From the sequence record OL780484.1: a DNA stretch of 64,000 nt. One strand, 5' to 3'. Position 1 is the first letter of the stretch, and every line of letters starts with the position of its first letter. The translations under genes and the position numbers were made by a program. Origin of the DNA: Escherichia phage vB_EcoM-E33. The notes beneath the pieces were generated by a model. The model ran no database searches. It was given only the letters and a program-made list of their open reading frames with translations, and was not told the origin of the DNA. This document shows positions 42,049-46,469 of this stretch, one piece after another.

Positions 42049-42609
42049 ATGATTATTGAAACAACTGAATTGTTTGGCGAACTGTCCGCTGAAGTAGTTA
42101 ATAACGCAATTGAGCTTTCACAAGAAGACGATAAAATCGTACTGACTATCGCTGATATTAAACCGCTTTATGATTTAATGGTTTTGGATAGACACGATTA
42201 TCTTAATGGTCGTGCTAGTGCTCCTATTGATATCAATGATGATATGTATGCCTATATCTATAAAAACGAAAACGGGTTTAATCTGGAAAATGGTATTGAA
42301 TGTCTGAGCATCAGCGATTCTGATAAATTCTTTGATTGTATTTTCAAACTGTTCCAGGAAGAATGTAAGCCGGAAGTTGAATGGAAAGTCCCAGGCCAAG
42401 ATGCTGTGATTCGTTCTAGTGAAACGTTTGAAGGCACTGAAGAGGAATTAGATTATAATACTGAACTGACTGTGCTTCAACATAACGGCCGTGATTTGCT
42501 ATCCTTGACCCAAAGACACGACGGTGAAAATGAAGTGGTATTTACTAAGGACGAGCTCAAAGCTTTAGTCTCTTATCTGAACTCTGTTATCCCAACTATG
42601 AACTCTTAA
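42049..42609 (+). CDS. acidic hypothetical protein
   Basis: 186 aa; SD gagga then ATG. Confidence 0.55.
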   Translation: MIIETTELFGELSAEVVNNAIELSQEDDKIVLTIADIKPLYDLMVLDRHDYLNGRASAPIDINDDMYAYIYKNENGFNLENGIECLSISDSDKFFDCIFKLFQEECKPEVEWKVPGQDAVIRSSETFEGTEEELDYNTELTVLQHNGRDLLSLTQRHDGENEVVFTKDELKALVSYLNSVIPTMNS

Positions 42610-42619
42610 GGAAAATATT

Positions 42620-43078
42620 ATGATTATCAATGCAAACTCTTGGCATGTTAAACTACATGACCGTTTTTATGCCAGTTATTCACGTCCGCGCTCATTATGC
42701 GCATACTTCTGGAAAATGGTTTGGGCGTGCTTTATATGTTCTGTGCTTGCAGGTAGTACTATTTTCGGCTTAACTGTTGCAGGTGCCGGTATATTGGAGC
42801 AGTTCTTTGTATTGAGTACTCCTGTTGGTTTAAGTTTAGGTTTTATTTTAGGACTGGTTACACTAGCTCTTATTCTAGCGGTAGCCGTTGGTATTGTGTA
42901 TTGTATAATGAATTTATGGTCCTGGTATGATTTACGTAAAGAAGAAAAGGAATGGCTACTAATTAAAGCTAAACGTGAAGGAAAGGAAATTAAAGAAAAT
43001 ATCGTTATTCAATATATCAAAGCTCGTAAATCTAAGGTCTGCCCTGTAATCCACTTCGAGAACAAAACAAACCCATAA
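42620..43078 (+). CDS. integral membrane protein
   Basis: Several hydrophobic helices (FWKMVWACFICSVLAGSTIFGLTVAG, PVGLSLGFILGLVTLALILAVAVGIVYCI). Confidence 0.55.
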   Translation: MIINANSWHVKLHDRFYASYSRPRSLCAYFWKMVWACFICSVLAGSTIFGLTVAGAGILEQFFVLSTPVGLSLGFILGLVTLALILAVAVGIVYCIMNLWSWYDLRKEEKEWLLIKAKREGKEIKENIVIQYIKARKSKVCPVIHFENKTNP

Positions 43079-43842
43079 TGAATTATACCAAGCTTTATGA
43101 TAGTCTAATCCAAAGAGGTAAACTTAGAGGATTAGACAAATCCAAATTAAATTTTTATACAGAGTCCCATCATATACTCCCATCATGTATTGGTGGGAGT
43201 GATGAACCTAATAATTTAGTTCTGTTGACAGCCAGAGAACATTTTATAGCACACTGGCTTCTAGCTAGAATTCATTCTGATTCTTCTGGACTAATTTATG
43301 CTTGGTGGTCGTTTTATAGCTTCGGTGAGGATTCTCTAGGAAGAAATCTTAAACTAACTTCTAGAGGATACCAATTAGTTAGAGAAAAATTTTCAGAAAT
43401 TCATTCAAATGCGATGAAAGAAATATGGAAGACTGAAGAGTATAGAAATAAACGTTCTATAACTATGAGTCTACCGGAAATAAAAGATAAAATGTCTGCC
43501 GCTCAAATAGAAGCTCAAAACCGTCCTGAAGTTAAAGAGAAAATTTCTAAAGCTATTAAAGAAGCATTTAAACGCCCTGATGTTAGAGAAAGGCATTCTA
43601 ATGCTGTTAAGAAATCTCTAAATAATCCGGAAACTAAAAAGAGGCAATCTGATGCTTCTAAAGCAAAGCAAAGAATAGGAAAACATTGGCAAGATTATGA
43701 TTTGCTTTATTCTTTATGGGTTAAATTAAATAGGCCTAAGCGTGGGGCTTTTGGTACTTATATTAGTAAATTAGGATATCCCAAATCTAACTACCAACGT
43801 TTAATTATGCAATTTATTGAAGACTATGAAAGAGGTGAATAA
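43078..43842 (+). CDS. HNH homing endonuclease (free-standing), copy 2
   Basis: YTESHHILPSCIGGSDEPNNLVLLTAREHFIAH HNH motif; N-terminal ~60 aa paralogous to the 19620 endonuclease; C-terminal repeats NRPEVKEKISKAIK / RPDVRERHSNAVKK / NPETKKRQSDASK. Confidence 0.8.
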   Translation: MNYTKLYDSLIQRGKLRGLDKSKLNFYTESHHILPSCIGGSDEPNNLVLLTAREHFIAHWLLARIHSDSSGLIYAWWSFYSFGEDSLGRNLKLTSRGYQLVREKFSEIHSNAMKEIWKTEEYRNKRSITMSLPEIKDKMSAAQIEAQNRPEVKEKISKAIKEAFKRPDVRERHSNAVKKSLNNPETKKRQSDASKAKQRIGKHWQDYDLLYSLWVKLNRPKRGAFGTYISKLGYPKSNYQRLIMQFIEDYERGE

Positions 43843-44852
43843 TGAGAACAGTTATGAAGGGATATTTTGGCTCCCACCTTTATGGAACAAGTACTCCGGA
43901 ATCTGATGTCGATTTTAAAGAAATCTTTGTTCCACATCCGCGTGATATTCTGTTAGGTACGGCTATGAACCATACCAACCTGAATACGAATAACACTGCT
44001 TCCAAAAACACTAAAGATGATGTTGACCACGAGCTTTACAGTCTGAAATATTTCTTTAAACTAGCGGCTGATGGCGAAACAGTTGCTTTGGATATGCTCC
44101 ACACTCCACCTGAACTGGTGGTTAAATCTGATTTACCTGATGTATGGAAATTTATCCAGGATAACCGTTCTCGGTTCTATACAACCAACATGAAAGCCTA
44201 TTTAGGGTACGTCCGTAAGCAAGCTTCTAAATATGGTGTTAAGGGTTCTCGTCTGGCTGCTCTGCGTGGTGTACTGGCAATCGTTAACCAGATTCCTGAA
44301 CAGTGGGTTGACTATCAAGAAGGAATCCCTGATAGACTTCGTCGTACTAAGGTAGAAGATATCAAACACAGACTCCCTGAAAATGAGTTCTGTGAATGGG
44401 TATTCCATAACCATGAGAAAACAGGCCCTCAAACGTTCTATACTGTTCTAGGACGTAAGTACCAAACTACTTTGTCTTTAATCGAGCTCAAGCAATCTCT
44501 GAATAAGCTCGATGCTGAATATGGTGAACGTGCCCGTAAAGCTGAAGCTAACGAAGGTATTGACTGGAAAGCTCTGAGCCATGCTTATCGGGCTGGGTAT
44601 CAATTGTTGGAAATCTACCAAACAGGCGACCTGGTATTCCCATTGCGCGAAGCCTCTATCATTAAGCTGATTAAGGCCGGTGAACTTCCATTTAAAGAGG
44701 TCCAAGAACTTCTTGAAGACACTGTTGATTTAGTCGAAGTACTGGCTATCCAGGCTCATAAGAACGGTATGCCTGCTAAGGTAGATATGAAGTTCTGGGA
44801 CAAGTTTGTTGAAGAGGTATACCTTGACAACCACAACTCTTATTATCGATAA
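43842..44852 (+). CDS. nucleotidyltransferase-fold protein (RNA-repair-associated family?)
   Basis: N-terminus KGYFGSHLYGTSTPESDVDF fits NTase G[SG]x9-13DhD; 336 aa; ATGA overlap with the HNH gene. Confidence 0.6.
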   Translation: MRTVMKGYFGSHLYGTSTPESDVDFKEIFVPHPRDILLGTAMNHTNLNTNNTASKNTKDDVDHELYSLKYFFKLAADGETVALDMLHTPPELVVKSDLPDVWKFIQDNRSRFYTTNMKAYLGYVRKQASKYGVKGSRLAALRGVLAIVNQIPEQWVDYQEGIPDRLRRTKVEDIKHRLPENEFCEWVFHNHEKTGPQTFYTVLGRKYQTTLSLIELKQSLNKLDAEYGERARKAEANEGIDWKALSHAYRAGYQLLEIYQTGDLVFPLREASIIKLIKAGELPFKEVQELLEDTVDLVEVLAIQAHKNGMPAKVDMKFWDKFVEEVYLDNHNSYYR

Positions 44853-44859
44853 CGAAGAA

Positions 44860-45048
44860 ATGAAGGTCTTTTTATCATATGGAAGACCCCATAAAACCCG
44901 ACGTTGGTATCTTGAAGCTGTCTGTAAAGAAACCGGACGTCGAGTCAATATCAAGTACGCATGCAAACCTACGCCTAAACAGACAAGACGATTTGTTAAC
45001 TGGGCTGTAAATGATATCCGCTTCTATAATTTTTGGAGCGCAATTTAG
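44860..45048 (+). CDS. small basic hypothetical protein
   Basis: ATG 44860 (MKVFLSYGRPHK...) just after the upstream stop; ORF-track start 44806. Confidence 0.45.
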   Translation: MKVFLSYGRPHKTRRWYLEAVCKETGRRVNIKYACKPTPKQTRRFVNWAVNDIRFYNFWSAI

Positions 45049-45069
45049 GAACCTTCGGGTTCCTTTTTT
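45048..45069 (+). terminator. rho-independent terminator
   Basis: ggaacc-ttcg-ggttcc hairpin followed by tttttt. Confidence 0.75.
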
Positions 45070-45088
45070 GGGTTTAGTGCAAAAAGGT

Positions 45089-45117
45089 GTTTACAACCTC
45101 GTAGAGCATGATACTAT
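45089..45117 (+). promoter_or_regulatory. early promoter cassette
   Basis: GTTTAC 45089-45094, 17 nt, TACTAT 45112-45117, then agacctatcaa. Confidence 0.6.
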
Positions 45118-45422: not shown

Positions 45423-45451
45423 GTGTACATATGCTTTAAACGTGTTATTAT
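45423..45451 (+). promoter_or_regulatory. early promoter variant (GTGTAC, 17 nt, TATTAT)
   Basis: Followed by agacctatcaaatctactgagtgaaatggagaatataATG, the same leader module as at 31170-31204. Confidence 0.5.
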
Positions 45452-45488
45452 AGACCTATCAAATCTACTGAGTGAAATGGAGAATATA

Positions 45489-46469
45489 ATGTTAACTATC
45501 AAAATCAACAAAGGTATCTATCGCGGTAATGAAATCTCTGGTACGTTCATGAGTTCAGGTAAAACCTGGTTCCCTAATAAAATTCATGAATCCGAAGCTC
45601 ACCTCGGTGATGGCAAGGTATTCGTACAGATTGATGGTGTTGAACGTGGTGTATGGGTGTTCAAATGTGACGTTGAAATGGAAGGTGCTGAAGCTCCTGC
45701 AGTTGTTACTGAATCCGCTGAAGAAATGAAACATCGCATTAACAAACGTTTTAAAGTAATGAACATGATGACTAATGGAATCATCGATGGTAAAATTCGT
45801 TCCCTTATCATCTCTGGTGCCGCAGGTATTGGTAAAACGTATTCTTTGGATAAAGCATTACAGAATGCCCACGAAAATGAAACTATCGAATATAAATCAA
45901 TCAACGGAAAGATTAGTGGAATCGGTCTTTACGAGCAGCTTTGGAATAACCGCGGCCCTAATAGTGTTCTTCTTATTGATGATGTTGATGTATTCTCTGA
46001 TATGGATATCCTGAACCTGTTAAAAGCAGCATTGGATACTGGTGAAAAACGTAAGGTGTGCTGGAGCACTTCAAGTTCTTATCTTGATGATAAAAATATC
46101 GATAAAGAATTTGAGTATGAAGGCACCATCGTGTTCATCACCAACGTTGATATTGACCGTGAATTAGAGCGTGGAACTAAACTTGCTCCACACCTCCAGG
46201 CTTTAGTATCGCGTTCAGTTTACTTAGACCTCGGAGTTCACTCGAACGAAGAGATTATGGTTCGTGTTGAAGACGTTATCCTGTCCACTGATATGATGCA
46301 AAACCGTGGTCTGACTGATGCCGAGACTTACCAAGCTTTAGCATGGATGAAGGCTAATGTATCTCGTCTTCGTAACGTATCATTACGTACAGCTCTTTAT
46401 CTGGCGGACTTCATTGCCACCGATAAAAATGACTGGAGCGAAATCGCTGAAGTTACACTTCTGAAATAA
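45489..46469 (+). CDS. AAA+-type ATPase with extra N-terminal domain
   Basis: Walker A ISGAAGIGKTY and Walker B VLLIDDVDVF; start ATG 45489 after SD ggaga; ORF-track start 45423 lies inside the promoter. Confidence 0.6.
   Translation: MLTIKINKGIYRGNEISGTFMSSGKTWFPNKIHESEAHLGDGKVFVQIDGVERGVWVFKCDVEMEGAEAPAVVTESAEEMKHRINKRFKVMNMMTNGIIDGKIRSLIISGAAGIGKTYSLDKALQNAHENETIEYKSINGKISGIGLYEQLWNNRGPNSVLLIDDVDVFSDMDILNLLKAALDTGEKRKVCWSTSSSYLDDKNIDKEFEYEGTIVFITNVDIDRELERGTKLAPHLQALVSRSVYLDLGVHSNEEIMVRVEDVILSTDMMQNRGLTDAETYQALAWMKANVSRLRNVSLRTALYLADFIATDKNDWSEIAEVTLLK

Follow-up and report, generated by a model that had tools for sequence, protein, structure and literature searches.

The nrdC.11 gene of Escherichia phage vB_EcoM-E33: a putative long-form RlaP nucleotidyltransferase with a proposed role in tRNA repair, beside an independently mobile mobD

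The genome of Escherichia phage vB_EcoM-E33 (OL780484.1) carries, within the 64,000-nucleotide stretch that we analysed (the window, to which all coordinates refer), an open reading frame (ORF) of 336 amino acids (43842–44852, +) that we identify, from its Pfam and PHROG 388 matches and its synteny with phage T4, as the nrdC.11 orthologue of a T4-type phage, encoding a nucleotidyltransferase (NTase) of a long-form clade of the RlaP family (PF10127). Our interpretation, to which we attach a probability of roughly 0.6, is that this resident gene encodes a long-form RlaP NTase that acts in phage tRNA repair, at a step between Pnkp and RNA ligase. Directly upstream lies a gene for a homing endonuclease, mobD, which is a mobile cassette with a history of its own.

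The family assignment begins at the N-terminus (MRTVMKGYFGSHLYGTSTPESDVDF), in which the original prediction for this region had recognized a polymerase-beta-type NTase signature; the ORF itself, the profile matches and the conservation of individual residues all bear that claim out. In the profile search that the prediction had suggested, PF10127 (RlaP, 'RNA repair pathway DNA polymerase beta family') matches at E = 1.8e-11 and 44.7 bits (gathering cut-off 23), and PHROG 388 ('nucleotidyltransferase') covers the entire length of the protein at E = 5e-132. Because the Pfam match exceeds the gathering score and the PHROG match is full length, the signature, G10-S11-x10-D22-V-D24, can be taken as more than a chance pattern. 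A precomputed PF10127 match is also present in 120/120 of the homologues among the matches listed. An alignment of 67 diverse relatives, with identity down to 34%, likewise recovers the acidic residues that are predicted to be catalytic, D22 and D24 in 67/67 and D62 in 66/67, with a Glu as the sole exception at D62. Also invariant are G10, G15, S21, N56, D60, D84, Y131, G228, R230, D241, H247, R250, P267 and K278, and S11 and K243 are each kept in 66 of the 67 sequences. On the DNA, the signature with its two predicted metal-binding aspartates spans 43869–43913 (+), and D60, D62 (the predicted third catalytic Asp, assigned to a strand of residues 61–67 in the structure model) and D84 span 44019–44093 (+). 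M5, the start that RefSeq chose for the homologues of phages QL01 and IME341, was considered as the true start of the protein and rejected, as T2, T4, Klebsiella and Serratia phages all share an MxTVMK N-terminus.

An AlphaFold2 model of the protein, built on the 67-relative alignment (predicted local distance difference test score 93.3, predicted template modelling score 0.81), places an alpha/beta NTase core at residues 1–112, helices at 118–150, a beta-rich segment at 154–208 and a helical C-terminal domain at 213–335. When the clade is compared by hhalign with canonical RlaPs taken from the cellular loci described below, the two align with a probability of 91% (E = 1e-6), and the active-site residues fall in register: GS pairs with GS, D22xD24 with D39xD41, and D62 and D84 with the invariant canonical residues D72 and E94, respectively. 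The beta-rich segment (residues ~154–208; 44301–44465, +), which is delimited by the DSSP assignment of the model, by variable alignment columns and by the end of the hhalign match, is the most variable portion of the NTase among T4-type phages. Beyond it lies the best-conserved C-terminal motif, YGERA...N.G.DWKA.SHA.RAG (G228, R230, D241, K243, H247 and R250; 44520–44591, +), which is predicted to form an RNA/NTP-binding face of the helical domain (NTP, nucleoside triphosphate). The C-terminal bundle was also considered as a HEPN RNase, a function that we rejected: the Rx4-6H motif is absent, and the conserved residues are H247-x2-R250.

The connection to RNA repair comes from the genomic neighbourhoods of the clade. 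One genome per prokaryotic species was scanned, yielding 156 relatives of the NTase, and we examined 80 loci at which the relative is full length and 34–53% identical. An RNA-repair gene (RtcB, Pnkp, Hen1, RtcA or Ro60) lies within 6 kb in 19 of these 80 loci, mostly adjacent and co-oriented; gene by gene, hidden Markov model searches of all ORFs found RtcB at nine loci, Hen1 at nine, Pnkp at eight, Ro60 at four and RtcA at two. A canonical short RlaP is present at 24/80 loci, usually directly downstream of the long form, and a repair marker or a canonical RlaP is found at 35/80. The clade of the window protein, in other words, shows the RNA-repair association that defines RlaP, and the family that the original prediction had linked to RNA-repair operons is, given the PF10127 match and the 19 cellular loci, the right one. 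A Pfam scan restricted to immediate neighbours identified the downstream gene as a canonical full-length RlaP in 14 of 55 loci (E down to 6e-81), with bacterial Pnkp (kinase-phosphatase-ligase), RtcA and T4-type RNA ligase among the upstream neighbours, and the recurrent representatives of neighbour clusters are RtcB, Pnkp, Hen1, Ro60/TROVE and RtcA. For example, the order at a Nitrosospira locus (L035) is Ro60-RtcB-RtcA-[NrdC.11-like]-RlaP-Hen1.

The tandem of a long form (~310–330 amino acids) followed by a short RlaP (~255–290 amino acids) recurs at this and other loci (L012, L015, L021, L036, L049, L056, L063, L066, L071, L076 and L077 among them), within Pnkp/Hen1 or RtcB/RtcA/Ro60 operons. 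T4-type phages have the long form only, without a short RlaP. The frequency of the tandem arrangement in bacteria suggests that the two forms are not redundant, and the pairing is suggestive either of two non-redundant nucleotide-adding steps or of a heteromeric enzyme. Two apparent fusions of an NrdC.11-like protein to RlaP (L069 and L083) were rejected as ORF run-through in different frames.

What is known of the biochemistry of RlaP comes from Carruthers, Fatma & Huang (bioRxiv, December 2025; PMC12776372), who studied the RlaPs of P. fluorescens and P. aeruginosa, the genes for which lie between rtcB and rtcA. These enzymes label RNA but neither DNA nor protein; one or two nucleoside monophosphates (or deoxynucleoside monophosphates) are added to an RNA 3'-OH with little NTP specificity, and Mn2+ or Co2+ is preferred (PMC12776372). 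They favour the break-site 3' end of a cleaved-tRNA mimic over the acceptor 3' end, although full-length tRNAs are also extended at the 3' end, and through them a tRNA-Asp missing one anticodon-loop nucleotide partly regained aminoacylation (PMC12776372). The structure of PfRlaP consists of an NTase domain and a helical domain, the last helix of which packs back on the NTase domain, and the authors propose that RlaP counteracts nucleases which, like RloC, remove a nucleotide once they have cut (PMC12776372). The same repair prediction was made by Iyer et al. 2021 (PMC7824862), who found that RlaP and RNA ligases are distributed alike in jumbo phages, and a role in RNA repair was also predicted by Burroughs & Aravind 2016, as cited in PMC12776372. 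How closely does the window protein resemble the CHARACTERISED RlaPs of Pseudomonas? Both belong to PF10127, with the GS, DxD and third-Asp motifs of the window protein in register with those of canonical RlaPs; the order of an NTase domain and then a helical one, seen in the PfRlaP structure, is predicted for the window protein by its model; and the clade of the window protein is likewise found near RtcB/RtcA or Pnkp/Hen1. However, T4 NrdC.11, the function of which is called unknown, falls in cluster 5 of the PF10127 network and the assayed Pseudomonas enzymes in cluster 1a (PMC12776372); the window protein is ~70–80 residues longer, can be aligned over its N-terminal ~175 residues only, and has the beta-rich segment 154–208 and a different conserved C-terminal motif.

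By analogy with these enzymes, we infer that NrdC.11 would add nucleotides to an RNA 3'-OH and would thereby serve phage tRNA repair. T4 Pnkp converts a 2',3'-cyclic phosphate to a 3'-OH and phosphorylates a 5'-OH; together with Rnl1 it makes up the founding example of RNA repair, a pathway that RloC-type nucleases, which excise the wobble nucleotide, have been proposed to frustrate. In the mechanism that we propose, a host anticodon nuclease would cut a tRNA, and in some cases trim it, and phage Pnkp would heal the ends. NrdC.11 would act after this healing and before the ligase, restoring nucleotides lost to excising nucleases such as RloC. Its residues D22, D24 and D62 would coordinate the NTP and a pair of divalent metal ions, probably Mn2+, with the RNA bound by the basic, conserved side of the C-terminal helical domain. 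Sealing of the break would then fall to Rnl1 or Rnl2, which require a 3'-OH and a 5'-phosphate, and a fraction of the products would be functional again. A product ending in 3'-OH would suit Rnl1 and Rnl2, the 5'-phosphate ligases of T4-type phages, which supports a role in repair. A more specific idea, which we put forward tentatively and with some doubt, is that the NrdC.11 clade is a functionally distinct long form and, together with Pnkp and Rnl1/Rnl2, the phages' counter to RloC-type nucleases.

A number of observations weigh against a role in tRNA repair. The enzymatic evidence comes only from distant Pseudomonas RlaPs of another cluster. The PF10127 match is limited to NTase residues 8–135, which correspond to profile positions 25–143 of 249, and the hhalign alignment to canonical RlaP is limited to residues 4–178, with the C-terminal half of the protein, including the beta-rich segment, not alignable; because the match stops at residue 178, we describe NrdC.11 as a divergent long form of the family. 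Genomic context also speaks on this side: 45 of the 80 cellular loci lacked both an RNA-repair marker and a canonical RlaP within the DNA fetched, RNA-repair genes are absent from the 64-kb window, T4 rnlA lies ~80 kb from T4 nrdC.11, and the distant phage homologues in Vibrio K567, Bacillus BC-T25 and Shewanella Thanatos-2 have no annotated RNA ligase or kinase-phosphatase neighbour. The per-genus counts of NrdC.11 and RnlA homologues are nearly equal, but this agreement may reflect only common descent in Straboviridae and is uninformative, since both genes are simply widespread in that family. Finally, laboratory T4 mutants lacking nrdC.11–mobD.3 are viable (PMC9825161).

Might the NTase act on something other than a broken tRNA? 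The best PDB neighbours of the AlphaFold2 model are NTases, Hailong HalB (9dbh/9dbj) and the kanamycin nucleotidyltransferase ANT(4') (1kny), and the latter has the same two-domain layout as the window protein. Both are, however, only 10–14% identical to it, with no significant sequence match, and differ from it in genomic context; HalB catalyses protein-primed dATP polymerisation and the kanamycin enzyme acts on aminoglycosides. Searches of PDB sequences, with the single protein and with the 67-sequence profile, gave no meaningful match. Modification of a protein or small molecule, whether by AMPylating a host HEPN-type RNase toxin, as MNT antitoxins do, or by adenylylation of the kanamycin nucleotidyltransferase type, is in our judgement unlikely: the match to MntA is an 18-residue GS...D motif far under the cut-off, the clade is associated in genomes with RNA end-healing and sealing enzymes, and the Pseudomonas RlaPs labelled RNA rather than protein or DNA (PMC12776372). 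We think it quite unlikely, too, that the enzyme synthesizes a nucleotide signal or an oligonucleotide in phage-host conflict, for example a HalB-like oligo-dA, or interferes with such signalling. The suggestion of the original prediction that the NTase might act on nucleotide signals gains no specific support here, as the likeness to HalB is one of general NTase fold (11% identity, no Foldseek match at E<=1e-3) and PADLOC places the protein in no CD-NTase or defence-NTase profile, yielding only an 18-residue motif match to PDC-S09 (E = 0.004, 15 bits). Nor is there a conserved HalA-like or effector partner, and the cellular relatives sit in RNA-repair operons, not in defence islands.

Repair of the tRNA 3'-terminal CCA, also suggested at the outset, has in its favour that the protein is a template-independent polymerase-beta-type NTase and that RlaPs extend RNA 3' ends, those of full-length tRNAs included. 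We nonetheless regard it as very unlikely and without specific support: no CCA-adding or PolyA_pol family appears among the Pfam or NCBIfam matches at E<=0.1, CCA-adding enzymes are absent among the top PDB fold matches of the model, and the host already has its own CCA-adding enzyme. Moreover, the characterised RlaPs show little NTP specificity and favour the 3' end of an anticodon-loop break (PMC12776372), and CCA-adding enzymes are treated as a separate phage family by Iyer et al. 2021 (PMC7824862).

Repair of broken tRNAs being the function that we favour, there is the question of how the gene came to lie where it does. The window region is 92–95% identical in DNA sequence to the Dhakavirus phages IME341, QL01, IME281 and WG01 (T4-type Straboviridae) and corresponds to the tk-to-nrdC early region of T4. 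In the window, genes for a MobD.1 homologue, a membrane protein, an HNH protein, the NTase, a DUF7279 ORF, and NrdC.10, NrdC.8 and NrdC.6 homologues follow one another, and the order MobD.1–membrane protein–(mobD)–NrdC.11–NrdC.10–NrdC.8–NrdC.6 matches IME341, QL01, VR26 and T4. T4 NrdC.11 (NP_049709, RefSeq 'nucleotidyltransferase') is of equal length and 82% identical in amino acids over all 336 residues, and its gene sits between the mobD/mobD.1 block and nrdC.10, with mobD directly upstream in both phages. The two arrangements differ in that mobD and nrdC.11 overlap by 17 nucleotides in T4 and by one in the window, and in that T4 is without a membrane-protein gene between mobD.1 and mobD, where the window has a gene of 152 amino acids. 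NTase homologues are found by tblastn in 1,548 phage records; 99%-identical copies are present in a large protein collection; and a profile search against 1.84 billion cluster representatives returned 3,909 clusters at E<=1e-3, the top 150 of which are nearly all full length (~300–390 amino acids), with a few fragments. From T4 orthology, synteny and this wide distribution it therefore follows that the NTase gene is the resident, conserved nrdC.11 of Dhakavirus-like T4-type phages. As a side note on nomenclature, many NrdC.11 homologues in GenBank and UniRef are labelled 'thioredoxin' and one 'HNH homing endonuclease', whereas Pfam finds the RlaP/NTase domain only; the 'thioredoxin' label apparently derives from the gene label nrdC.x.

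The upstream ORF (43078–43842, +; 254 amino acids) is an orthologue of mobD and encodes a free-standing HNH homing endonuclease. Its product is 79% identical to T4 MobD over 252 amino acids and 96% identical to the MobD of VR26, the gene for which is at the same position; PHROG 655 (homing endonuclease) matches at 6e-56, the Pfam HNH match is weak (E = 0.054), and the HNH core, HH..N..N..H, is found within ESHHILPSCIGGSDEPNNLVLLTAREH. The mobD stop codon TAA and the nrdC.11 start codon ATG have one base in common (gaaTAATGaga), the AGAGGTG ribosome-binding site for nrdC.11 lies in the 3' end of mobD, and mobD in turn overlaps the membrane-protein gene (42620–43078, +; 152 amino acids; PHROG 944 membrane protein, 3e-53) by a TAATG of its own. 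The first of these overlaps is what had been read as translational coupling of the NTase to the endonuclease, and the one-base overlap and the position of the ribosome-binding site do stand. The implied special tie between the two genes does not. QL01 and IME341 are without mobD and retain the full nrdC.11, and at these empty sites it is the membrane-protein gene that runs into nrdC.11, its stop codon overlapping the start codon of the latter (GAATGA; QL01 junction GAATGAGAACAG); since the overlap is already there at the empty site, the mobD cassette merely re-creates it on both of its sides, with nrdC.11 overlapping whichever gene is upstream.

Alignments across the junctions and to the flanks, in which blastn matches stop at 43066 and resume at 43838, define an inserted segment of ~770 nucleotides (43067–43837, +) that is absent from QL01 and IME341. 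Around it, in 100-nucleotide sliding comparisons, a ~1.2-kb tract at ~42700–43900 resembles VR26 (Gaprivervirus; 84–98% identity) rather than QL01 (74–85%), in a QL01-like backbone to which identity is mostly 91–100% before 42700 (the bin 42400–42499 is at 82%) and 91–100% after 43900; the tract takes in the first ~60 nucleotides of nrdC.11. This is the pattern expected of homing with co-conversion of flanking markers from a VR26-like donor. A MobD of >=60% identity is found in 53 records, compared with 1,548 for the NTase, and none of the best-matching Dhakavirus records has mobD at the nrdC.11 site. We conclude that mobD is an independently mobile cassette inserted between nrdC.11 and the gene preceding it, and that its presence in the window is apparently a recent homing event.

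The original prediction had drawn the opposite lesson from the coupling, suggesting that the NTase gene had come in together with the HNH gene, on one mobile unit. The shared TAATG, the position of mobD directly upstream of nrdC.11 in T4 and VR26 as well, and the entry of the co-conversion tract into nrdC.11 would all agree with an NTase that is cargo of the endonuclease and moves with it. Yet we give this almost no credence, and consider it already refuted by the pattern of presence and absence: the gene is whole at the empty sites of QL01 and IME341, records with the NTase number 1,548 and those with MobD 53, and nrdC.11 from 43900 onwards tracks the QL01-like backbone, not the mobD donor. 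In bacteria, moreover, relatives of the NTase reside in RNA-repair operons, and HNH endonucleases are absent from the neighbour families listed there.

In PMC2988022, which reviews the mobile elements of T4, mobD is entered as a free-standing HNH gene at 'nrdC.11/mobD.1', with its target unknown and its activity not determined. The window gene resembles T4 mobD in its insertion beside nrdC.11 and in being a promoter-less cassette that overlaps its neighbours (PMC2988022), and differs from it in the upstream neighbour, which is mobD.1 in T4 and the membrane-protein gene in the window. The two sites have a single flank in common, the 5' end of nrdC.11, a hint that the MobD target may lie there.

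Other features of the window can be described briefly. The transcription unit ends with a small, conserved ORF of 62 amino acids (44860–45048, +; Pfam DUF7279 6.6e-9, PHROG 8921 4.9e-32), which is followed by an intrinsic-terminator-like hairpin, AGGAACCTTCGGGTTCCT, and a T-run (45047–45072, +), recognized from the sequence. Past this terminator lies an early-promoter-like site, TTTACA-16-TACTAT (45090–45117). The NrdC.10 homologue (45423–46469) is a P-loop ATPase that shows weak AAA/STAND-like matches and matches PHROG 1250, a group of unknown function, over its full length; because the PHROG alignment begins at residue 23, translation probably starts at the ATG near 45489, not at the GTG at 45423. 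The MobD.1 homologue (42049–42609) matches Pfam T4_y05I_N and T4_y05I_C ('putative transcription factor'), and tandem phage tRNA genes, tRNA-Met (CAT) and tRNA-Arg (TCT), are found at 24136–24292.

In closing, nrdC.11 is a gene already known, annotated as 'nucleotidyltransferase' and discussed in the literature, and it is no new kind of system; what the present analysis adds is the independent homing of mobD, a quantified neighbourhood test for the long-form clade, and the pairing of long and short forms. If NrdC.11 does restore excised nucleotides, it would be a third enzyme of phage tRNA repair, and such restoration would explain why nrdC.11 is retained in >1,500 sequenced T4-type phages despite being dispensable in the laboratory.

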